Positions 1 to 52,133 of a stretch of 52,879 bases of DNA are shown piece by piece; the first letter of the stretch is position 1, and every line of letters starts with the position of its first letter. The position numbers and the translations under genes are program-made. The notes beneath the pieces were generated by a model. It worked only from the letters and a program-made list of their open reading frames with translations. It had not been told where the DNA came from and searched no databases. Where the stretch lies: positions 1-52,879 of the IMG/VR virus record IMGVR_UViG_3300010222_000005. The stretch is one strand, 5' to 3'. This DNA comes from a virus. Lineage: Duplodnaviria > Caudoviricetes.

Positions 1-55
1 TCTCGTGTCCCGTGGTCGACTAGGACGAGCGTACCAGGAGCCTGTTCAGTACCGG
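1..55. repeat. 55-bp exact direct repeat, copy 1 (copy 2 at 47188-47242)
   Basis: TCTCGTGTCC...GTTCAGTACCGG is identical at both places; the sequences diverge immediately afterwards (TCGCG vs AGGTC). Confidence 0.97.
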
Positions 56-281
56 TCGCGCAGTGACCGCCGTCGGTCATCGCCACCGGCGGCGAGCGCG
101 GGTCGTGGTCGGGGTCGTCGAAGCATTCGGAACAGCACTGCATCGCTGTCCGCCTGGAGCGGTACCGGGTGCCGCAGAGAGCGCATTTGAACCACTCTTG
201 ATCTTGGTCTCGGTCCTGCTCGTCGTCGGAGTCGATACATCGGTCTGTGGGGCGCTGGCCCCCGCAGTCGTGGTCGTGCAT
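1..281 (-). CDS. Zn-finger protein fused in frame to a cassette domain (3' end runs off the window)
   Basis: Hand translation from ATG 281: MHDHDCGG...WFKCALCGTRYRSRRTAMQCC...AMTDGGHCATGTEQAPGTLVLVDHGTR. The last part is identical to the ORF at 46989-47261. Not in the supplied ORF track. Confidence 0.75.
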   Translation of the reverse strand, partial: MHDHDCGGQRPTDRCIDSDDEQDRDQDQEWFKCALCGTRYRSRRTAMQCCSECFDDPDHDPRSPPVAMTDGGHCATGTEQAPGTLVLVDHGTR

Positions 282-315
282 GGTAGGTTCGGGGTTGCTG
301 TCTGTTGCTGCTCTG

Positions 316-552
316 TCAGTCCTCGCGAGGATCACTGATAAGTCGGTACTCGCCGGTCGGCGCGTACCGTTGTTCGGCATGCTCAGCGGCCATCAGCTGC
401 TTGAGGTTATTCCGAACAGTCTCGCGGGAGTAGTCAATTTCTGCGGCGACGTGGCCAATCGTAGCACATGAGCAGGGCTGTTCGTTAAACCAGTCCAACA
501 CGTCTTCCATTGATTCAGTCCGCTGAATCGCCACACTCACTGGGTAGTTCAC
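316..552 (-). CDS. Small winged-HTH DNA-binding protein
   Basis: TIGHVAAEIDYSRETVRNNLKQL HTH followed by a wing-like segment (TGEYRL). Confidence 0.75.
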   Translation of the reverse strand: MNYPVSVAIQRTESMEDVLDWFNEQPCSCATIGHVAAEIDYSRETVRNNLKQLMAAEHAEQRYAPTGEYRLISDPRED

Positions 553-4096: not shown

Positions 4097-4572
4097 CGCC
4101 ACTACCACGCCGCCAGCAGGTGCCTCGGTATTGTCCACGTTCGAGTCGTGGATGGCGGCCTTCGGACCATCGCGACGACTGTCCCGCACGTCCCGTACGG
4201 GGCCGCGGGCCGCCGTCGCAGGGGCCGTCCAGCCCCACCCCTGTATCGCTCATCAACCATCCATCGCAGACGACACCTGCATTGTGGGTTCCACCACCGA
4301 ACTCGCTCCTCTGTCCATGTGGCAGCTATCGGAGGCGGTCGAACCGGTCACATCATCCATGGACGACCGTCGCGATGGTCCGGCCGACCCAGGTGGCACG
4401 CCACCCGGCGCTGTCCAAGACGGCGTCGCGCGTGCGGCGGTTCGACTCCGCCGGTCGGCACTTAGAGGCACAGCTCGCTAACTAATCAGCGGTCGCAGTG
4501 CACCGGGAGCAGCCCCCGAACCTACCAAAGTCAGACGGCTGCTCGCCGGTGGGACGGATCAGCCCAAACACG

Positions 4573-41100: not shown

Positions 41101-41184
41101 GGGTTCATACCCCGCCTGAATGCTGCCAGCATGGTTCGCCTGAACTGTGTTCGTGCGATGTTCAAATAGCTCGGGGATGGCTGC

Positions 41185-41375
41185 GACCCAGTACTGAACG
41201 GGTACGTGTTCCTACCCCCACAGTCATGAACCAGTCCAGAACAGGGGTGTAATTCCCCAACCCGGTTGCTGTGAACCAGTACTGAAGGGGTAGGGTTTCT
41301 TACCTCCCCCACTATGAATCAGTCTGGAATGGGGGTGTGATCGCCCAACCCCCTGACTATGAACTGGGGTTGAAC
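41185..41375. repeat. Degenerate tandem array, five units spaced 43/45/43/45 bp (iteron-like)
   Basis: GA[AC][CT][CT][AG]G...GAA units start at 41185, 41228, 41273, 41316 and 41361; units 1/3 and 2/4 are most alike (88-bp dimer). Confidence 0.75.
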
Positions 41376-43639: not shown

Positions 43640-44433
43640 TACTTAACCACCTGTTCGCCGAGGTCAGGCCGTGTGTCGCTTAGCTCGTCCGGGAGCGGCG
43701 GGAGTTCCCGCAGCACCGTCCGAGTCATATTCTCCTCAACGAGTGCTTTCCCGCGCTCGTTGTGCCGGTTCGCGCTCTGCTTGAAGAATACCGGCAGCCC
43801 TTCTTCGCGTGCGGCGTCTCGGATCTCACGGGCCCACGCATGGGGCATCTCTCGGTGATTCGGCCCGGATTCGCCACCGATCACGACCCAGTCCATGCCC
43901 TGGAGGTCGGGCGAGCCGACGCGATCAACGAGCGGCTCGAAGCTGACCCACTTCGTCGCGGCGGCGGTCGCCCGGAGATGCTCGATGCGATAGGAACGCC
44001 GGGCGGTTTCGACGCTGACGCCCATCCAGAGGTTGTCGGGCCACCGACCGCCGGTTTCGCGGTCCCACTCTAGCATCCGGTTGTTCTCGGTGCCGTGCTT
44101 CGTCAGTGCTTGAAAGGCGTGTTGGGGGTTCCGTTCGATCACGTCGAAGATCTCGTGAACGTAGCTGAACGGGACGTTTTCGTGGAACAGGTCAGACATC
44201 GAATTGACGAAGATGCGAAGCGGGTCCTTGTCGTCGGGGTACTCGAGATGGTGGCCCTGCAGCTGCACGTTCTCGTCGGCGTTGGCGACCGTCCACGCCT
44301 CGGTCGTGTGATCGTACTGCTGAGACTGCCGAGCGGCGTAGCAATTCCGACAGCCCTCGCTGATCTTGTGGCAGCCGTGGACGGGGTTCCAGGTGTCGTC
44401 GCACCAGCCGATGTTGGTGTCTTTCGTGGGCAT
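43639..44433 (-). CDS. DUF5131 / phage Gp37-Gp68 family protein (radical-SAM-like three-Cys motif)
   Basis: TWNPVHGCHKISEGCRNCYA, IFVNSMSDLFH, SFEPL, WVVIGGESG, FFKQ. Confidence 0.93.
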   Translation of the reverse strand: MPTKDTNIGWCDDTWNPVHGCHKISEGCRNCYAARQSQQYDHTTEAWTVANADENVQLQGHHLEYPDDKDPLRIFVNSMSDLFHENVPFSYVHEIFDVIERNPQHAFQALTKHGTENNRMLEWDRETGGRWPDNLWMGVSVETARRSYRIEHLRATAAATKWVSFEPLVDRVGSPDLQGMDWVVIGGESGPNHREMPHAWAREIRDAAREEGLPVFFKQSANRHNERGKALVEENMTRTVLRELPPLPDELSDTRPDLGEQVVK

Positions 44434-45074
44434 CAGGTATCACGCTCCTCGCGCTCAATTGGGAACCACCACTGCCGGCCGCCCTCAATCAGCAGCCCGA
44501 CCCGCGGTGGCCGGTCCTCGGTCGGCAGACACTCCTCGTTGCGGAGCTGGGCCGTCCGACCGACGCCGTCCAAGTAGTCGGGACCCCAGTGGCTGGCTCG
44601 GACGCTCCCGAAGACAGCGTCGCGGGCGTTATCGCCGGGGCAGTGTGAGTCGACGGTCGCCGTCGGCGCGCGGATGATGAGCCGGTCGGCTGCCCGGAAG
44701 CGTTCGGGTAACCAGAGGCCGTCCTCGGAGGCCCGTAGCGGCTCATCCTCGAGGCCGACCAGCCGGTGCAGGAGCCGCCGCTGGCGGTCGTGCTCAAACT
44801 CAAGCTTACGCCATAGCTGCCGCGAGGTCGCCTCGATTAGTCGCTTCGCCCCGTCGTGGATGGTGACCGGGTCGTGCTGGCGGTCGTGGGTGGCGCAGAG
44901 GTCCATCCCTGGTTTCACGGACCGCGCGGCGGCGCAACGCTGGCCGTCCGTGGTGATGGCCGTACACCGACCGTTCGGATATGAGCGCCTGCTATCTTGT
45001 CCGCCCTGGCTTGGGGTGTCGCTGGTGTGGTCGGGATTCTCAACACCGGCACCAAACTGCGAGAGGTCGCTCAC
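44433..45074 (-). CDS. Hypothetical protein with C-C-C-H finger
   Basis: RCTAITTDGQRC...LCATH. Confidence 0.75.
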   Translation of the reverse strand: MSDLSQFGAGVENPDHTSDTPSQGGQDSRRSYPNGRCTAITTDGQRCAAARSVKPGMDLCATHDRQHDPVTIHDGAKRLIEATSRQLWRKLEFEHDRQRRLLHRLVGLEDEPLRASEDGLWLPERFRAADRLIIRAPTATVDSHCPGDNARDAVFGSVRASHWGPDYLDGVGRTAQLRNEECLPTEDRPPRVGLLIEGGRQWWFPIEREERDT

Positions 45075-45460
45075 GCCACCACCGCCAGGGGCTCGTGCAG
45101 CCGCCGGTCGTTGTGCTCGGCGAACCGGCGCCGCTTCTGGTAGACCCGCTTGGCCTGCCGGCCCTCAAGGGCGACGTGCTCGTCGGCGGGGAGGACTCCG
45201 CAGTCAGGACACTCGCGGGTCCGCGTCCCGGCGTCGCGGTTGACGACGACCTGCATCCGGACGACGGCGCCGCACTCGGGACAGTGCCGTGTCGGGTAGT
45301 GGATGTCGACGTATCTCTCCTCGTACCCCAGCGCCGCCATTCCGTGGCTCTCGGTCAGGGCGGCGGCGATGTCGGCCAGCAGGTCATCGGGTGTCTCGAG
45401 GCGGTTCAGCGGTCGCTCCTCAATGTACGACGCGATGGCCCGCGGGTAGCCCTTAGGCAT
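45071..45460 (-). CDS. CPxCG Zn-ribbon protein
   Basis: CPECG...CPDCG; ATG 45460 preferred. Confidence 0.7.
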   Translation of the reverse strand: MPKGYPRAIASYIEERPLNRLETPDDLLADIAAALTESHGMAALGYEERYVDIHYPTRHCPECGAVVRMQVVVNRDAGTRTRECPDCGVLPADEHVALEGRQAKRVYQKRRRFAEHNDRRLHEPLAVVA

Positions 45461-45737
45461 GCAACCACCGCCAGAGTCGGCTGAGCAGTCCGGGATCGCG
45501 TGGCCGCGTTCGCTCACTGCAGGTGGAGCCCTCAAAGACCTCGCCGTCGCGGACGATAATATGGGTGTAGTAACTGTGTGCTCGCTCGTGTGTGCGGGCC
45601 ACCTCACCGCGCCAGCCGCAGACCGGGCAGCCGCGGGCCGAGTCCGCACTTTGGATAGGACTCGTGTCTCGCCCGGCGCCGCCCTCTTCGGTCGGGATAT
45701 AGCCAGCGCCGTCGTCGGGCGTCCAGCCGTCACGCAT
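45453..45737 (-). CDS. CPxCG-containing small protein
   Basis: GCPVCG; GAGGTGA upstream; overlaps both neighbours. Confidence 0.6.
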   Translation of the reverse strand: MRDGWTPDDGAGYIPTEEGGAGRDTSPIQSADSARGCPVCGWRGEVARTHERAHSYYTHIIVRDGEVFEGSTCSERTRPRDPGLLSRLWRWLHA

Positions 45738-46035
45738 CTTTCAGGTCACCTCTTGCTCGCCAGTCGCGGATGTGCAGCGTCCCGCCGTTGACGCGAATGT
45801 AGCCACCGTGGTCAGCGACCAGCTCCAGCAGGTCGCTCGGCAAGTGGAAGGACCCTCTGTCCACGACGTCCAAGAGTACCTCGTAGATGGGCTCATCGTT
45901 CAGGTAGCCGGGCTGGCGGACGCGGGCCAGGCGGAACTCGGCCGCCGGGGTGCCGCTCTGGCCGTCGGTCGGGCCCCTGACGTAGTTCGCGTCGTTGAGC
46001 TGGGCGCGGAGTGCCGCTGCGTCGTCGTGGTTCAT
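45730..46035 (-). CDS. Hypothetical protein
   Basis: GGAGG Shine-Dalgarno; ATGA coupling. Confidence 0.7.
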   Translation of the reverse strand: MNHDDAAALRAQLNDANYVRGPTDGQSGTPAAEFRLARVRQPGYLNDEPIYEVLLDVVDRGSFHLPSDLLELVADHGGYIRVNGGTLHIRDWRARGDLKDA

Positions 46036-46364
46036 CGGTTGCCCTCCTGCGATGGCAGGTGAATATACAACGTTCTTTTCGACGCAAGCGCGGATGTCTG
46101 ACAGATCCTCGCATCACCCCGAACATCGGGACGCTGGCTGGTTGCGCGACGCTCAAGTTTGTTTGCGTACTGTTGGCCGCAGATTGGGCACTCTTGGTCG
46201 TCGGCGCTATCAGCGACCGCTGAGCTTTCATTTGCAACCTGCCGAAGCGCCGCCGCCGCGTGGTCAATAGCCGCAAGTTCGTCGTCGGAGAGTGCTGGGT
46301 CGGCTCCATCCCCCACGCCGATCAAGCGGTCAGCCAGCGTCGCGTAGTCGTACTGCTCGCTCAT
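46032..46364 (-). CDS. CPxCG-containing protein
   Basis: ECPICGQ. Confidence 0.7.
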   Translation of the reverse strand: MSEQYDYATLADRLIGVGDGADPALSDDELAAIDHAAAALRQVANESSAVADSADDQECPICGQQYANKLERRATSQRPDVRGDARICQTSALASKRTLYIHLPSQEGNR

Positions 46365-46651
46365 TGGTCGGCCTCCTGGTCAGTATCCGGCTCTACTGAT
46401 CGGTCGGTTCCGCCGTCGGAAAGTAACGGTGGGTCGCCATTACCGAGACTGAACGCGCGGTTACAACATCGGCAAAAGTGGATTTTCCACGCTCTCTTAC
46501 CACCGTCCGGATGTTCAAGCGCCTGCACACGTTCGCCAGCCGCCTCTCGGGGACAGGTGGCGCAATCCGTCTCGTCCCCTAGAGTCCCGTAAATGTCCTG
46601 TTCAGTGCCGTCCTCAGACACCTCGATCACCTCTGGTCGTATGATCGTCAC
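46361..46651 (-). CDS. CxxC cassette protein
   Basis: CATC...CRCC; ends SDGGTDRSVEPDTDQEADQ (junction motif). Confidence 0.7.
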   Translation of the reverse strand: MTIIRPEVIEVSEDGTEQDIYGTLGDETDCATCPREAAGERVQALEHPDGGKRAWKIHFCRCCNRAFSLGNGDPPLLSDGGTDRSVEPDTDQEADQ

Positions 46652-46754
46652 AGATACCTTTCGCTCTCGGCACCTCGTTGAGACACTCCGGCACCTCGCA
46701 CTCCTGCCAGTGTTTCAGATGGTCAGTCCTGCCTGAGACTTGACTGTTAACCAC
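46614..46754 (-). CDS. Cys/His microprotein (46 aa)
   Basis: Hand translation from GTG after GGAGGTGA: MVNSQVSGRTDHLKHWQECEVPECLNEVPRAKGICDDH... Confidence 0.55.
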   Translation of the reverse strand: MVNSQVSGRTDHLKHWQECEVPECLNEVPRAKGICDDHTTRGDRGV

Positions 46755-46787
46755 TGTCGCTCACCTCCTCGGACCGCTCATTATCCG
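46731..46787. repeat. 57-bp gene-junction repeat J1, copy 1
   Basis: 56/57 identical to 48185-48241. Confidence 0.95.
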
Positions 46788-46992
46788 GTGCGAGTGATCG
46801 GTCGCACTCCTCGCTCGCCGCCGGCGTCGCGCCGGGGGAGGCGGACATCGCGCGGATAACGCTTTTATAGTTTGTATCTGAGGTAAGCACGCAGTCAACG
46901 CACAGGTAGTCATTGTCGCTTGTGGGGACGACAACCAGGTCGCCGCACTCTTCGCAAATCCGGTCAACACCGTCTAAGTCGGGGCCGGTCAT
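46747..46992 (-). CDS. CxxC cassette protein
   Basis: CEECG...CVDC; ends DRSLAPDNERSEEVSDSG. Confidence 0.7.
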   Translation of the reverse strand: MTGPDLDGVDRICEECGDLVVVPTSDNDYLCVDCVLTSDTNYKSVIRAMSASPGATPAASEECDRSLAPDNERSEEVSDSG

Positions 46993-47261
46993 CGCTTTTC
47001 CTCCTGCTCGTTGTTCGTTGCGAGTGAACGGACCGAACCAGCGCACTCGTCACAACAGCGGCGCGTCTCGAGGTCAAACCACTCCGAAATATCCATTCGG
47101 ACCTCGTCGGTCGCACCGCAACCAACACCCTGTCCGCAGGCCGTTGCGTGTTCGTCCCCATCGAAGGATATCGAGTGGTGCCACGTCTCTCGTGTCCCGT
47201 GGTCGACTAGGACGAGCGTACCAGGAGCCTGTTCAGTACCGGAGGTCAACCCATCGGTCAT
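46989..47261 (-). CDS. Cys/His cassette protein
   Basis: Starts MTDGLTSGTEQ; WHH..TACG..CCDEC; ends RSLATNNEQEEKR. Confidence 0.75.
   Translation of the reverse strand: MTDGLTSGTEQAPGTLVLVDHGTRETWHHSISFDGDEHATACGQGVGCGATDEVRMDISEWFDLETRRCCDECAGSVRSLATNNEQEEKR
47188..47242. repeat. 55-bp exact direct repeat, copy 2
   Basis: Identical to 1-55. Confidence 0.97.
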
Positions 47262-47506
47262 TGGAAAGCACCGTCCATGGTACCCGTGTTCATCAATCGC
47301 GCAATGTCTTCTGCGTAGCCTCCGGCCATGCGATAGTAGCCGCGGGCCAGCTCAGGATCGTGATCCTCGTGCCCTGCTGCAACATCGATGATGTCCAACA
47401 ATGTCCAGACGGCTCTCTCACCCCCGTCTTCGGGATCATGTGTAATGGTTGCTGGTTGCTCAATACCGCTGCTGTCGTGATCAGTTGGGCTGTCGTTAGA
47501 TGTCAT
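47258..47506 (-). CDS. Cassette protein
   Basis: Starts MTSNDSPTDHDSSGIEQ. Confidence 0.7.
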   Translation of the reverse strand: MTSNDSPTDHDSSGIEQPATITHDPEDGGERAVWTLLDIIDVAAGHEDHDPELARGYYRMAGGYAEDIARLMNTGTMDGAFQ

Positions 47507-47546
47507 ATTAGGCGTCCTCCCGCTTGTTATCTGTGTCTAATGACTG
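47456..47546. repeat. 91-bp degenerate gene-junction repeat J2, copy 1
   Basis: Ungapped match to 49389-49479, 66/91 by hand count. Confidence 0.85.
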
Positions 47547-47780
47547 TTTTATTTGCAAGGAAACAGCGTAAGCTCGTTCGACGGCAGCTGGAAGTTTGGC
47601 GATATCTCTGTCGGAGTGCTGTGATGTTCCGCATTCCGGACAAGTCCAAGGGTCTCCCGGCGTCGATTGCTCTGAGCCACAATTCATACAGATTCGGGGA
47701 GCAGGGTTTATTGTCCCATAGCGAAGATGCACTGGCTCCCCGTACTGTCGTTTAGCACCGCCTGAGGACTGCTCGCTCAT
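47508..47780 (-). CDS. CPxCG cassette protein
   Basis: Starts MSEQSSGGAKR; CMNCG...CPECG; ends QSLDTDNKREDA. Confidence 0.75.
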   Translation of the reverse strand: MSEQSSGGAKRQYGEPVHLRYGTINPAPRICMNCGSEQSTPGDPWTCPECGTSQHSDRDIAKLPAAVERAYAVSLQIKQSLDTDNKREDA

Positions 47781-47986
47781 CCGTTGACCACCTCGCACTT
47801 ACGCCCGGCGGTCCCGTTCAGGTTGAGCCACATCTCCGTGTGCTCGTCACAGTAACTCATTTTGATCATCGTCGTTTCGATTTCGCCAGTTACACTTTTG
47901 TAATGAGATTCCATGTGGAGTGTCGTGGTTGAGTCGTCGTGACATTTGACTGTGGCGCACTCCTCCCGTTCAGTATTGTCACTCAT
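47777..47986 (-). CDS. Cys/His cassette protein
   Basis: MSDNTER; CATVKC...YCDEH. Confidence 0.7.
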   Translation of the reverse strand: MSDNTEREECATVKCHDDSTTTLHMESHYKSVTGEIETTMIKMSYCDEHTEMWLNLNGTAGRKCEVVNG

Positions 47987-48158
47987 CCGAGCGGTCACCT
48001 TCCTTCTGAATTATATATTCGGCAATCCCCTCTAACTCCTCTTTAGTAAAAAATCCGGGCTTCTCCATTGACTGACCAATTTTAGCAATCCGGTTTATAT
48101 TGTCTCTGATCTCTTGGACTGTCTGTTCAGCCTTATCCATGGATTTATCACCTGACAT
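47979..48158 (-). CDS. AT-rich 59-aa cassette protein
   Basis: Hand translation MSGDKSMDKAEQTVQEIRDNINRIAK...FTKEELEGIAEYI...GDRSDE. Confidence 0.6.
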   Translation of the reverse strand: MSGDKSMDKAEQTVQEIRDNINRIAKIGQSMEKPGFFTKEELEGIAEYIIQKEGDRSDE

Positions 48159-48184
48159 CAGTAGATCACCGCCCAGTCACTATC

Positions 48185-48241
48185 GCCTGAGACTTGACTG
48201 TTAAACACTGTCGCTCACCTCCTCGGACCGCTCATTATCCG
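48185..48241. repeat. 57-bp gene-junction repeat J1, copy 2
   Basis: 56/57 identical to 46731-46787. Confidence 0.95.
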
Positions 48242-48449
48242 TGTCAACAGAACGGTCGTATCGCCCTGCTTCCCCGTCGGAAGTATATTCAGGCTTCCCG
48301 ACGTTCTGAACGTTCCGCACGCCGAACGCCTGGCCGTCGCGACCGTATCCGCAGCGATTACACTCCGAGGCGTTCTGGTGGTTCTTCGCGCCACAGTCTG
48401 CGCACCACATGTGCCATTTATTGGCGATGTGGTGGCGTTTCGTCGTCAT
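48201..48449 (-). CDS. Zn-ribbon cassette protein
   Basis: CADCGAKN...CNRCGY; ends DRSVDTDNERSEEVSDSV. Confidence 0.75.
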   Translation of the reverse strand: MTTKRHHIANKWHMWCADCGAKNHQNASECNRCGYGRDGQAFGVRNVQNVGKPEYTSDGEAGRYDRSVDTDNERSEEVSDSV

Positions 48450-49114
48450 GCTATCACCGCCCCGCACCGCCCGCAGCAGTGCCCGTGATCGAGAGTTACC
48501 ACTGCCTCGTTACAGTCGCACTCGGAATAGGCCCAGACCGTCACGTCGCGGCGTCGGTCGTCACGGCCACGGTTGATGATGGCCGCCTCACCGACCGCCT
48601 CGTGGCGAGTCTCGAAGGCCTGCGAGTGGTCGATGCCGTAGTACCATTTGACCTGTCCGCCGCGGTCAGTACCGGCTGAGCACCTACCGCCGTCGGTCAC
48701 GAAACCACGGTCAAGGTCGAGGTCGCCCCGCTCAAACGCGCGCCAGTGGTGGATGCAGAGGTAGTCGTACGGATCATTTGGACCGCCGTACGTCCCGAGG
48801 AGCCCGGGCCGACCAAGGTCTGGCTCCTCGCCACAGTAGTTGCAGGTCCGTTCGGTCTCCGCGTCTACAGAACGGCTCTTTCGGTCATTGGTTGCTTCAA
48901 GTAAGGTTAGCTGGGTGGTGGACTCATCAGCCTCGCGTTTTGCGATTGGTCCATTACTGTTCCAAATCTCGACTCCGCGAACATGTGGATCAACTGCTTT
49001 GTGATCTCCTTCGTGTCCCGACCGCCGGACGCATTTATTCCCGTTTTCGTTCTCTTCAAGACAGGTTGGTGGCACTTCTGACAGCGTCTCAACAAACTTA
49101 TTTTCAATCGTCAT
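48446..49114 (-). CDS. Three-domain fusion of Cys/His cassettes
   Basis: Domains separated by internal junction peptides RSVDAETER and TDGGRCSAGTDR. Confidence 0.75.
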   Translation of the reverse strand: MTIENKFVETLSEVPPTCLEENENGNKCVRRSGHEGDHKAVDPHVRGVEIWNSNGPIAKREADESTTQLTLLEATNDRKSRSVDAETERTCNYCGEEPDLGRPGLLGTYGGPNDPYDYLCIHHWRAFERGDLDLDRGFVTDGGRCSAGTDRGGQVKWYYGIDHSQAFETRHEAVGEAAIINRGRDDRRRDVTVWAYSECDCNEAVVTLDHGHCCGRCGAVIA

Positions 49115-49260
49115 TTGAATGTCGACCTCCCCACCAGCTTCGATGTTGTCTCGAGGCAGTCCTCGCAGGTCAACACAAGCCGTCCATTACTGACGCTGTA
49201 CGAGACATCCCCACTATCGCATTCAGGGCAGGTCAAAAATCGTTCTACACTATCTGTCAT
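49111..49260 (-). CDS. CPxC microprotein
   Basis: MTDSVER; CPEC...CEDC. Confidence 0.7.
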   Translation of the reverse strand: MTDSVERFLTCPECDSGDVSYSVSNGRLVLTCEDCLETTSKLVGRSTFK

Positions 49261-49439
49261 TCTATCAACACCCCACATTCGGGGCAAAGCCATTGCATCT
49301 CTCCGACCGAGTTCTCAACAGACTCCATCGGCGTCGGCTTGTGCGGCTGTCTGCTGCCATCGAAGTCCACATCCACCCCGTGGCAGATTCGTTCATTACC
49401 GCTACTGTCATGACCGGTTGGGCCATTGCTAGCTGTCAT
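49257..49439 (-). CDS. CPxCG microprotein
   Basis: Starts MTASNGPTGHDSSGNER; WLCPECG. Confidence 0.7.
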   Translation of the reverse strand: MTASNGPTGHDSSGNERICHGVDVDFDGSRQPHKPTPMESVENSVGEMQWLCPECGVLIE

Positions 49440-49479
49440 GTTAGACAACGTCTTGATGGTTAGCTGTGCCTACTGATTG
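49389..49479. repeat. 91-bp degenerate gene-junction repeat J2, copy 2
   Basis: Matches 47456-47546. Confidence 0.85.
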
Positions 49480-49833
49480 AGCGAGTCGATCCGCGTGCTC
49501 GGCGATCACCTCTGCGTGGCAGGCTGGGTCATCATTGTCGAGCGACTGGCACCAGCACCCGAGAGTCGTCCCTGAGAGGTTACGGACGGCCTCTCTAAAC
49601 TCGTCGTCACCTCGGAGACGAGATTCGAAGTCGTCGCGGAACAAGTCGATAGACTCGGATCTGGTGTATCCGTCGTCGAGCGGATGTGGGTTCCCAAGCC
49701 ACCCGCGAGAACCTATCTCTGTGTTACTCATCGACCGACCACCAGTACCGCGACCGACGTACACATGCGTTTCGTCTCGCTTGCAGTGACCGATTCGGGT
49801 CCGTTCAGTACCGCTTGTGGATTGTTCAGTCAC
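49441..49833 (-). CDS. DUF4326 domain protein (first cassette of the array)
   Basis: VYVGRG...LGNP...LSGTTLGCWC...ACHAEVI; starts MTEQSTSGTER. Confidence 0.88.
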   Translation of the reverse strand: MTEQSTSGTERTRIGHCKRDETHVYVGRGTGGRSMSNTEIGSRGWLGNPHPLDDGYTRSESIDLFRDDFESRLRGDDEFREAVRNLSGTTLGCWCQSLDNDDPACHAEVIAEHADRLAQSVGTANHQDVV

Positions 49834-49871
49834 AATAGTTCACACTCTTTTGCGTGGATAAGCATGCCTCG

Positions 49872-49885
49872 AATATATAAATAGG
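49872..49885 (-). promoter_or_regulatory. TATA box for the leftward cassette operon
   Basis: TTTATATA on the minus strand about 40 nt upstream of GTG 49833. Confidence 0.6.
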
Positions 49886-50683
49886 GGAGGATCATCACTT
49901 ATTATTCGGTGTCATTGAGGTATCCTTCTCCGAGGTCATGGATTGAAACAGGCCTGAGTCACGACTCTCCTATGAGAAAAATGCCGTCGCCGATGTCGGA
50001 CTGTAGTGAACCAACCCCTACCTGCTCAGCAAGGCCGCCAATAAGGAAGAGCCGCGTGAGCGGCCCCAACCAACCCGAATGGGTCTTTAGGAGGGTCCCC
50101 GAGGATGCGCCATGGTCTTCGGTTTGGCCGTAATATTGGGTCCAGTAACCAGCTTTTCCCTTGTGGCCAAACGTTGAATCATAGCGCAGATGGGGCTAAG
50201 GCCCGGTGGGCATATTAATGTTTGAGTGCTGAGGTGAAAGTCCAAAATCGAGATATTGAGCCGGTATTTGTCTTATCAAATTTTTTCTATATGTGCGGAT
50301 AGAATGTTAGCAAATGTTAGTTAATCGGTGGCTCGGAATGGTCAGACCGTGCATCGAGCCCGGTTTGAGAGCCAAGTGCTGATTTAGCAGGTGAACTAGA
50401 TGGTGAGTCGGAGCCACAGACGTATTTTATCCGCTGTTGATACCTATGGACACGGTCGAGGGCGTCCGAAGCGAGAGTAGAGACGCCATTCATCGGTTAT
50501 GTACACCGTCGGGTCTTTAGCCGGGTCTGGTTCGTAGATACGAGAGCGTCGCGGCTCACGCTGAGAAATGCCGCAGTCTTATGCGTGACAAAAGACAGTA
50601 TCTCATCTGTCGACCCGCATGCAGTTGATGGCGTTACTCATTCAGAGCTGCGAAAGAAATCAGTCCAAACTAATTCCTATAGA

Positions 50684-50744
50684 TGTTGCACTAATAACTA
50701 CAACAAGATTTAAGTGGGTTGGTGTTGTATTACTAAGTACAACA
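50684..50744 (+). promoter_or_regulatory. Promoter flanked by two 22-bp palindromic operators
   Basis: TGTTGCA-N8-TACAACA (50684-50705) and TGTTGTA-N8-TACAACA (50723-50744) either side of TTTAAG. Confidence 0.75.
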
Positions 50745-50756
50745 GAGGATATCATA

Positions 50757-52133
50757 ATGGTTGCACCCAACGTCACTCTGAATGGCGACGACGACAGTAA
50801 GTACCCAAGTCCGGACGATGACGACAGCGAGTATCTAAAGGCGATGACCGACGGCGGCGTCAACGAATTCTCAACCGAGATTCACATCGATTATCTTGCA
50901 GCGTTCTCCGATGAAGTTGACGAACAAACGGTTGATGCGACAGTCACTCGCGACGACGAACTGGTCAAAATCGAAACGCCAGAAAATGAACTCCGTCTCC
51001 GGCCGAACGAAGAACACGGCATCGTCCATCTGTACTCGGAATATGATCGTGAGGAATTTACCCACAGCCAGCTTGCACACCTTCGATACCGTGGTAACGA
51101 GAACCGTATCTCCGTCAGCTGGAAACACGCCGACCAGAATGTTGACTCGATTACCCTCTGTGATAGTGCCTACCAGTTGGTATTGAATGTTCTCGACGAT
51201 GTCCGGCAGGCACAGAACCACTTGACGGTCGAGCAAGTTCATAACGTGACCAGCGTCGAAATTCCCGCGCTCCCATTAGTCGTGACTGAAACACCGGTCA
51301 CACGTGGAACTGGGACTGGTCGTCAGACTAGCACGGAACTGGTTGTCGAACCCGATTCTGCTGCGGATGTCGATAGTGAGGAATGGAAGCAATGGCGAAC
51401 GATTGTGCAGCGAGCCGGACACCATCAATTTACACATTTTAAAGACCACATGTGGCCCCCAGAGGGAGAGGGCTATGAGGAGGGTGATCGGCTGACTCTC
51501 CACGAGTACATCAATGAATGGCACGCCATCGACGCCGGCGATGTGGCGAGCGAAGCTGAACTCGCTGAGCTGGAACTTGAGACTGACCTCTCAGTCGGAG
51601 ATTTTGTGACGGTTGCCAACGGCCGTCATCGTGATGACCTAACCGAGCGCCAAGGCGTTATTCGTGACGTTGAGGAATCTCGCGCAGAGATCACATGGGA
51701 CGGACATAGTTGGTCAACACTCAGACGCGACGACGACGGCCAGCTCCGAGTGGGCCGGGCGGGGGGTTACTCCCCGGTCCGCGACCTAGAAGTTCATCCC
51801 GACCCCGCAGAGATTGCCGACGAACTCTCCGACGTCAGAGAGAATGTCATGGAGTCTATGGAGGTCGACCAACAGGCGAACACCTACGATGTAGCAGTCG
51901 AGCGAACGTGGGAAACTAGTGGTGCTGTCGAAGCAGACCGGGCGAGCGACCTCCATGCAGAGGTTACTGTTGACGGACCAGGGCTCACTGATCCGGTAAC
52001 CGTCCACTGTCGCAACGCATTCGATTTCGGCTGGACGGCGAATATCAAGGGCGACCTCGACGAAGACACAGCGGCGGCCGTGAAACGAGCGGTTCGTAAT
52101 AACAGCCCGATCCCGACCGGGGTACGGTTATGA
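50757..52133 (+). CDS. Multidomain hypothetical protein
   Basis: Acidic, 458 aa from ATG 50757; KOW/SH3-like segment (LSVGDFVTVANG). Confidence 0.8.
   Translation: MVAPNVTLNGDDDSKYPSPDDDDSEYLKAMTDGGVNEFSTEIHIDYLAAFSDEVDEQTVDATVTRDDELVKIETPENELRLRPNEEHGIVHLYSEYDREEFTHSQLAHLRYRGNENRISVSWKHADQNVDSITLCDSAYQLVLNVLDDVRQAQNHLTVEQVHNVTSVEIPALPLVVTETPVTRGTGTGRQTSTELVVEPDSAADVDSEEWKQWRTIVQRAGHHQFTHFKDHMWPPEGEGYEEGDRLTLHEYINEWHAIDAGDVASEAELAELELETDLSVGDFVTVANGRHRDDLTERQGVIRDVEESRAEITWDGHSWSTLRRDDDGQLRVGRAGGYSPVRDLEVHPDPAEIADELSDVRENVMESMEVDQQANTYDVAVERTWETSGAVEADRASDLHAEVTVDGPGLTDPVTVHCRNAFDFGWTANIKGDLDEDTAAAVKRAVRNNSPIPTGVRL

Follow-up and report, generated by a model that had tools for sequence, protein, structure and literature searches.

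The DNA analysed here (the window) is the whole 52,879-bp virus record IMGVR_UViG_3300010222_000005, a linear sequence assessed as 76% complete by CheckV, and the subject of the analysis is an array of small genes on its minus strand. The array spans positions 46032–49833 and consists of 14 co-oriented small open reading frames (ORFs; g1–g13 and the 46-aa g11b) together with a 16-codon relic (Table 1). Most of its junctions are ATGA, ATGnnTGA or GTGnnTGA overlaps, as read from the sequence once start codons had been reassigned to overlap the preceding stop. At least three Cys residues are present in 11 of the 14 ORFs, but no curated family was reached. The N- and C-terminal peptides quoted in a preliminary description of this DNA were all found in the array ORFs. 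The same description placed the genes under one TATA box, which is not established: besides the element upstream of g1, TATA-like boxes were seen by eye at 48005–48012 and 46058–46068 on the minus strand, ~22–28 nt 5' of the g7 and g14 starts. These could give leaderless internal transcripts, and the array therefore need not be one transcription unit.

The array ORFs share a 12-nt core, G[GA]T-A[CA]T-GA[ACG]-C[GA]G, present as 13 codon-aligned copies that share both strand and reading frame. The copies lie 3–14 codons inside N-termini, 4–12 codons before stops and, in two cases, inside g4; the stretch ahead of an N-terminal core is referred to below as the head and that following a C-terminal core as the tail. 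The encoded peptide is [SD]-G-T-E-[RQ] near N-termini and D-[NT]-[ED]-[RQ] after R-S-[LV]-x-x near C-termini. The exact consensus CGGWAMTGAVCRG gave 3 matches in the window against 0.03 expected, and allowing up to two mismatches gave 51 matches against 23.5 ± 4.8 expected, a number reached by none of 100 shuffles; 13 of these 51 are on the minus strand within 46376–49813. At the protein level, [GDN][TN][ED][RQ] occurred 11 times in g1–g13 (9.5 per 1000 aa), and the 39 control ORFs contained six occurrences (0.48 per 1000 aa), which makes the peptide 20-fold denser in the array. Core frequency does not match an acidic-linker background.

Thymine occupied the wobble position of core codons 1 and 2 in 20 of 26 cases against a background of 20%, a figure that is partly circular because the sites had been chosen by nucleotide pattern. 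In a set defined by peptide instead, wobble T was found in 17 of 22 cases, and control ORFs had it in 4 of 12 (Fisher p = 0.025). No wobble-T bias was seen in the heads and tails that adjoin the cores (T3 of 0.29 and 0.15), so the bias is not general to translation-initiation regions. AT-rich translation-initiation regions were considered as its source and ruled out, heads and tails not being AT3-rich. Within this genome the core is thus conserved at the nucleotide level, and not at the protein level only.

The wobble data bear on the possibility that the cores are primarily peptide signals, serving either for processing or cleavage or as a targeting tag, with mosaic boundaries coinciding with them by way of dispensable heads and tails. 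T4 internal proteins, for comparison, carry a capsid-targeting leader. Consistent with such a role, the motif persists at the protein level in homologues of 56–68% identity, it stands between fused modules in the manner of a polyprotein cleavage site (in g4 and, with xDGG linkers, in the multi-module ORFs of locus L088), and the R-S-[LV] tail retains its R and S through synonymous codons (CGA/CGT and TCA/TCT). A weaker point in its favour comes from the AlphaFold2 model of g10, in which residues 1–12 and 86–90 have a predicted local distance difference test (pLDDT) score <50; that model is moderate overall (mean pLDDT 67.0) and the model of g4 poor (45.6), and neither was relied on. The conservation of wobble T argues against a peptide signal, as do the looseness of the peptide itself (G/D/N, T/N/I, E/D/K, R/Q), a distance from core to start codon that ranges from 3 to 14 codons, and the fact that the scans identified no protease. 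We regard this explanation as unlikely.

Beyond the cores, an 83-nt linker, J1, occurs twice in the array with 86% identity, and one tail is shared by three cargos, namely g5, g11 and g4 module 1 in the homologous protein P0019. Whole linkers had been proposed to recur between different gene pairs as J1, J2 and J3; J1 qualifies, and J2 and J3 amount to 67–81% similarity over 26–30 nt of Shine-Dalgarno and start context. Ten DNA folds of seven linkers gave z-scores from −2.49 to +1.15, falling below −2 only for the two strands of J1 copy 1, and the fold of its paralogue had z = +0.28. The 'dyad' pointed out at 48663–48674 has arms of only 4 bp.

Parts of the array were recovered from four public runs (X1–X4) that belong to three studies of rock and halite metagenomes. 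Contigs from these runs were placed on 44000–51500, and breakpoints were compared with cores that had been listed before the contig comparison. Parts of this interval that are uncovered in X2–X4 are no evidence of absence. Ends outside 46000–49900 (one joint, one joint end and seven loose ends) were excluded. Among the best-supported breakpoints, 10–11 of 21 joint ends and 7–8 of 17 loose ends within 46000–49900 lay 0–4 nt from a core. When these were merged, 11 of 25 breakpoint clusters were at cores, which make up 8.2% of positions (p = 1.6e-6; conservative p = 6e-5), and only 2–3 of the 25 were at start or stop codons, which was not significant. A core with a position weight matrix (PWM) score ≥13 was found ≤14 nt from 19 of 33 breakpoint positions, and one with a score ≥9 was near 10.5% of random positions. 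The two internal cores of g4, which are 220–440 nt from any gene boundary, each carried a breakpoint cluster. Breakpoints are therefore not random with respect to the cores.

One concern is that the contigs are chimeric at repeats and that the joints were never real molecules. All runs were available as k=31 contigs only, and two joints that run backwards near the J1 repeat (48241 to 46767 and 47781 to 46767) could be repeat-induced. The cores themselves, at 12–14 nt, are shorter than the k−1 = 30 overlap needed to make a chimera. Identical boundaries were seen in all four runs of the three studies, at a contig end of the original assembly and in proteins from JGI, ENA and Logan sources, so that an assembly or alignment artefact is highly implausible.

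The joints observed were deletions, replacements and duplications, and none changed strand. The reading frame was kept at all six deletion joints within the array, the products of which include g4 module 3 preceded by the g1 head, g4 module 1 followed by a J1-type tail, the g11b body with the head of g11, and two ORFs that consist of head and tail with no cargo. At a seventh joint, 32 other letters stand in place of the linker and give g10 a different head. The letters shared at joints numbered 0, 4, 6 and 9, the crossover windows occupied differing core positions (about −2 to 2 in one event and 6–10 in another) and one deletion was 3 nt off register. Because of this variable sharing, the scatter of positions and the off-register deletion, short-homology recombination or template switching is favoured over exchange at a fixed bond.

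The same boundaries were evident among homologous proteins. Each of the 19 short homologues of g4 covers a single module (module 1 in six, module 2 in one and module 3 in 12) with its own head and tail, and carries a core-like peptide that matches the position of a g4 internal core; g4 is therefore interpreted as a three-module in-frame fusion joined at its internal cores. P0019, from a JGI source, has the exact architecture of a joint product from X4. In the g10 family (14 homologues, 56–83% identical), the block from the N-terminal core to the R-S-L ahead of the C-terminal core is kept and the sequence outside it is variable, three homologues having additional modules fused upstream. In the g12 family (four homologues), the body is kept and the ends vary before the N-terminal core and after the C-terminal core, including a 99%-identical body with a different tail from the C-terminal core on. 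The exchange of cargo segments and linkers at the cores, first proposed from this sequence alone, is thus upheld by joints and ends from four runs, by the shared tail and by g4 modules that are separate elsewhere.

The reading that we favour, with a probability of about 0.58, is that this is the hyperplastic early array of a halovirus resembling Halobacterium phage phiH and Natrialba phage phiCh1, in which in-frame adaptor cores let short-homology recombination shuffle, delete and fuse modules. Each cargo module, mostly a zinc-ribbon domain of 40–80 aa, is bracketed by co-oriented 12-nt cores, and each junction, the 40–75 nt between a 3' core and the next 5' core, holds an acidic tail, the Shine-Dalgarno GGAGG, an overlapping stop/start and a head of 3–13 codons. 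With all cores in one orientation and one frame, any exchange at a pair of them, or close to it, would keep both the frame and translational coupling. A module would be replaced when co-infecting relatives exchange, modules would be deleted or duplicated when distant cores in one genome exchange, and two genes would be fused by exchange across one junction. Such exchange would most likely proceed by short-homology recombination or template switching through general host or viral machinery, with no dedicated site-specific recombinase. The cores, their excess and common frame, the breakpoints on them, the products that keep the frame and the occurrence of modules both apart and fused are observations; the enzymology, the origin of the core and any selective value are inferred.

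In a different scenario, a viral or host recombinase or nuclease would recognise the core and excise or insert cassettes in the way of an integron or a shufflon. The cores are asymmetric, co-oriented, sharply bounded and wobble-conserved, as sites for such an enzyme might be; many breakpoints fall within a few nt of them, and the cargo-less products of head and tail resemble empty sites. According to their annotation and to PMC3950731, phiCh1 and phiH, of the same family, carry the Int1 recombinase in an invertible segment, flanked by two tail-fibre genes that contain repeats. In the present record, PF00589 gave no match at E≤0.1 over its whole length (76% of the genome), with control matches in 14 of 14 genomes; PF00239 was likewise unmatched over the same length, and a Pfam scan of 50 ORFs contained no recombinase. 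Dyad symmetry of the core does not exceed 3–4 bp, no attC-like hairpin appeared among the ten folds, core sequences differ at 4–5 of 12 positions, and the crossover windows of separate events do not overlap, one deletion being off register. A dedicated cassette system of this kind is improbable, and the label 'integron-like' given to the array earlier is not retained: the record has no recombinase, attC-like hairpins or single crossover point, and the cores are inside ORFs. A broader version, in which the cores are sites of dedicated machinery of some sort (a recombinase or nuclease encoded in the missing quarter of the genome or by the host, or a programmed copy-choice on DNA), seems to us a similarly long shot. 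The copy-choice variant has a parallel in nidovirus transcription, which uses body and leader signals. If such dedicated machinery existed, it would reassort, fuse and delete modules during infection, and archaeal viruses would possess a cassette system that is internal to ORFs, preserves the frame and yields combinatorial libraries of small zinc-ribbon proteins.

Several points weigh against recombination by short homology at adaptor cores. A degenerate 12-nt core is short for classical homologous recombination, and passive recombination alone leaves the strong nucleotide conservation of the core unexplained. A recombinase could be present in the missing part of the record or in the host, the former being conceivable because the record is only 76% complete. 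Fourteen of the 25 breakpoint clusters were away from the cores listed beforehand; some of these were at weaker core-like sites recognised only afterwards, and others were inside cargos (g10 codons 30–55, g11 codons 50–55 and g13 codon 90). The counts derive from the best-supported breakpoints, with a further 31 loose ends and 81 contig pieces outside them. The relatives are represented by short-read contigs (Logan, k=31) or database proteins only and give no rates, circles or long-range phasing. X3 and X4 hold relatives of 88–95% identity and not direct parents, so the inferred crossover windows, which were read from the array's own sequence, may be wrong. The depth in X1 was 40x for 44000–46456 compared with 77–145x for pieces within 46758–51445, which suggests that several related viruses or arrangements are co-resident, the right-hand part being common and the left differing; because of this uneven depth, the gene order in the window may be one path through a mixture.

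Core-like sequences also stand outside the array. An 88-nt tandem repeat (2.0 copies, 77% matches) at 41180–41351, in the 550 nt that separate the helicase operon from the small-gene/ParA operon, contains core-like copies on the plus strand (PWM scores 18.1 and 17.3) along with hairpin-like units flanked by G/C. The repeat may function in partition or replication or encode a non-coding RNA; the Rfam scan reported no family for it, nor for the window as a whole. These opposite-strand copies, the orientation of all array copies with transcription and the nine occurrences of TAMTGAAC against 1.0 expected could be accommodated if the cores were sites for a DNA-binding regulator, or partition or replication iterons, with recombination a secondary effect. 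Regulator sites of a comparable kind are the stoperators, the repressor sites of Cluster A mycobacteriophages; the analysis identified no binding protein for the cores. The repeat region, however, has only one exact and one near copy, four of the nine TAMTGAAC matches are dispersed elsewhere, a fixed reading frame would serve no purpose in a binding site, and breakpoints on the sites would not be predicted. Regulator binding as the primary role of the cores is very unlikely.

A possible origin of the core is suggested by comparison with phiH and phiCh1, whose early operons (loci L001 and L002) have stereotyped junctions with a Shine-Dalgarno sequence within the upstream C-terminus and an 8-nt ATGAsTGA overlap. 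Most junctions at these two loci are 8- or 11-nt ATGnnTGA overlaps with GGAGGTGA-like sequences within the upstream C-terminus, and this arrangement of overlap and Shine-Dalgarno accounts for the stereotyped acidic ends (…DDE, …DDA) and M-[ST]-[ED] starts. In an alignment of DUF4326 genes, the g1 core matched column for column the ATGACTGA stop/start overlap of phiH PhiH1_375; the 7-codon head of g1 is extra relative to the phiH and phiCh1 genes, and at locus L088, from a third relative, the DUF4326 module is fused to upstream modules at the point of the g1 core. Ten of 13 cores retain a TGA at the position that corresponds to the former upstream stop, and no ORF now ends there. When phiH was compared with phiCh1, 9 of 13 ends of high-scoring segment pairs were ≤25 nt from a gene start. 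From these features, the core would be a former gene junction (an ATGAsTGA stop/start overlap) that has come to lie within ORFs. The idea that an overlapping ORF terminates at the out-of-frame TGA of the core was discarded, the upstream open frame being only 0–19 codons.

Since PWM scans of loci L001–L005 and L088–L090 showed no enrichment of the core, it appears to be lineage-specific. A second peptide, [TSPA]-D-G-G, mostly coded by GACGGCGG, recurs at the ends of zinc-ribbon modules; in the window it is found at 46420, 48697 and 77 on the minus strand, ahead of three cores. At L088 (9141–14720, plus strand), the same peptide joins numerous modules, giving ORFs of 399 and 500 aa; this locus has one homologous tail, and its fused ORFs use xDGG linkers.

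The remainder of the record carries the structural block of a tailed virus (terminase, portal, Mu-F-like protein, HK97-like capsid, tape measure and beta-helix fibre), a ParA gene and, on the minus strand, a long operon with DUF5131 and an SNF2/ERCC3-type helicase at its end. A DNA similarity search against phages matched only the DUF4326, ParA and DUF5131 genes (to phiH, phiCh1 and ChaoS9), most other genes being unmatched. These three genes share 68–71% nt identity with phiH and phiCh1, and the record is accordingly placed as a distant relative of the myohaloviruses. With the shared genes and the tightly overlapping small-gene operon, the early region is myohalovirus-like. The only tRNA gene on the record is a tRNA-Leu (anticodon CAA, 4383–4461, plus strand). 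Searches of IMG/VR for relatives gave none with g10, with the g10 family alignment or with the J1 linker as a DNA pattern, and profile searches there gave three loci each for DUF5131 and DUF4326. In the JGI metagenome contig collection, neither the g4 protein nor the J1 DNA pattern found a match. A DUF5131 search of genome contigs returned 80 loci, mostly bacterial and none haloarchaeal, and was uninformative on the core.

The left end of the record also touches on the array. Its first 55 nt are an exact duplicate, with a differing upstream context, of the sequence that starts at the g10 core. A zinc-finger ORF at 81–380 replaces g9 upstream of this duplicate and is fused in frame to a g10-like gene, inside which the record stops (1–380, minus strand). 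An independent X1 contig ends at 47242, the boundary of the duplicate, and an assembly-graph branch at the g10 core is indicated because 55 nt fits an assembler k-mer. The end of the record is probably such a branch and not a genome terminus.

Table 1. Features of the small-gene array and related elements (positions in the window; N-core and C-core, cores near the N- and C-terminus).
Feature	Position	Strand	Remarks
TATA-like box	49872–49883	−	~44 nt 5' of g1 start codon; read by eye
g1	49441–49833	−	DUF4326 protein; 7-codon head, N-core codons 8–11; aligned to phiH/phiCh1
Core, g1 N-terminus	49801–49812	−	joints at 49805, 49808
g2	49257–49439	−	60 aa; N-core codons 14–17; head paralogous to g9 head
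Core, g2 N-terminus	49389–49400	−	joint at 49401
g3	49111–49260	−	49-aa zinc ribbon; head weakly core-like
g4	48446–49114	−	222 aa; three modules fused in frame at two internal cores
Core, g4 internal, module 1/module 2	48848–48859	−	joints at 48852, 48858
Core, g4 internal, module 2/module 3	48662–48673	−	joints at 48665, 48674; loose end at 48674
g5	48201–48449	−	82-aa zinc ribbon; C-core and J1 tail
Core, g5 C-terminus	48228–48239	−	breakpoints at 48224, 48241
J1 copy 2	48176–48258	−	16-codon relic ORF follows in place of cargo
g6	47979–48158	−	59 aa, no Cys; overlaps g7 at its end via ATGAGTGA
g7	47777–47986	−	69 aa; N-core codons 4–7
Core, g7 N-terminus	47966–47977	−	X1 contig end at 47976
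g8	47508–47780	−	90-aa zinc ribbon; C-core codons 84–87
Core, g8 C-terminus	47520–47531	−	codon-aligned copy
g9	47258–47506	−	82 aa; N-core codons 14–17
Core, g9 N-terminus	47456–47467	−	codon-aligned copy
g10	46989–47261	−	90 aa; N-core and C-core; 14 homologues, heads and tails variable
Core, g10 N-terminus	47229–47240	−	breakpoints at 47236, 47241, 47242; 55-nt duplicate starts here
Core, g10 C-terminus	47004–47015	−	loose ends at 47014 in X1 and X3
g11	46747–46992	−	81-aa zinc ribbon; weak N-core, C-core, J1 tail
Weak core, g11 N-terminus	46960–46972	−	peptide DGVDR; joints at 46962, 46971
Core, g11 C-terminus	46774–46785	−	joint at 46783
J1 copy 1	46722–46804	−	C-core, acidic tail, GGAGGTGA, GTG start, head, weak core
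g11b	46614–46754	−	46 aa; GTG start after GGAGGTGA; weak N-core
g12	46361–46621	−	86 aa; start reassigned to GTGTCTGA overlap; N-core, pre-tail core, C-core
Core, g12 N-terminus	46598–46609	−	codon-aligned copy
Weak core, g12 before tail	46400–46412	−	peptide GGTDR; joint at 46403
Core, g12 C-terminus	46376–46387	−	loose ends at 46376, 46378
g13	46032–46364	−	110 aa; final ORF of array; no strong core
Left-end duplicate	1–55	−	55-nt exact duplicate of 47188–47242; starts at g10 core; differing upstream context

The closest described system is modular shuffling mediated by PeSLs in T4-type phages (PMC2839356), with which Comeau et al. in 2014 reportedly dealt as well. As set out by Arbiol et al. 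2010 (PMC2839356), PeSLs are ~100-bp intergenic units of a promoter and a stem-loop terminator, and PMC3950731 mentions a PeSL-like motif ahead of ORFs in halovirus HGTV-1, for which modular shuffling was suggested. Both systems involve numerous small early genes, most of them orphans, that occupy a hyperplastic region and have a short, conserved, co-oriented flanking motif; in both, close relatives differ by insertions, deletions and replacements whose ends are within the motifs, and the motif brings expression signals with it, which keeps recombinants viable. The array differs from PeSLs, as described there, in that its boundary is a 12-nt core within coding sequence and in a fixed frame, in that its linkers carry a Shine-Dalgarno sequence and a stop/start overlap with no consistent stem-loop in place of a promoter and terminator, and in that its exchanges also yield in-frame gene fusions and cargo-less ORFs.

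A further likeness is offered by the T-even adhesin gp38, in which glycine-rich motifs separate hypervariable segments, according to Trojet et al. 2011 (PMC3157838). In both cases, phages exchange variable segments that are set apart by short conserved motifs kept in frame; gp38 is a single protein with structural motifs, whereas the array consists of unrelated, independent small genes with the motif in probably disordered ends. The Int1 module of phiCh1 and phiH shares with the array the virus family, repeats in coding sequence and alternative in-frame proteins; according to annotation and PMC3950731, it has inverted repeat clusters and an adjacent tyrosine recombinase that inverts one segment, whereas the array repeats are all direct, the cargos are many and unrelated, and the record, at 76% completeness, contains no recombinase. 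The array also differs from the Rci shufflon, which produces inversions by means of inverted repeats and a dedicated recombinase, in that all 13 cores are on one strand and PF00589 and PF00239 are unmatched in the record.

Integrons consist of intI, attI and attC cassettes; attC folds as a single-strand hairpin, and the site lies outside promoterless ORFs. Co-oriented small cassettes downstream of a promoter-like element, with a content that varies between relatives, are found in integrons and the array alike, but the array has no integrase in the 76% complete record and no folded attC, its sites are within ORFs and its crossover point is not fixed. Gene-boundary mosaicism is known from lambdoid phages, which have 'boundary sequences' at gene junctions. 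In tailed-phage mosaicism of this type, including that of phiH versus phiCh1, homology blocks end at gene junctions as they do in the array, where in contrast the boundary is 10–40 nt into the ORFs on both sides and heads and tails are exchangeable. The literature search, passages of PMC6471424, PMC3950731, PMC7230728 and PMC3157838 included, brought up no description of an in-frame core in haloviruses.

The array would provide a sequence-level rule for the diversification of accessory early genes in archaeal viruses, and should be of interest to phage and archaeal-virus genomics. With an in-frame adaptor at both ends of a module, almost every exchange would be viable, and genes could fuse and split without introns. 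This would explain why the ends of unrelated halovirus microproteins are alike, and annotators would need to regard heads and tails as lying outside the functional domain. Pairs of cores in one frame may serve as a handle for mining hypersaline metagenomes for candidate host-takeover or anti-defence proteins, and the long-standing 'linker sequence' model for the modular evolution of phages would become directly testable in a natural population with many coexisting variants.

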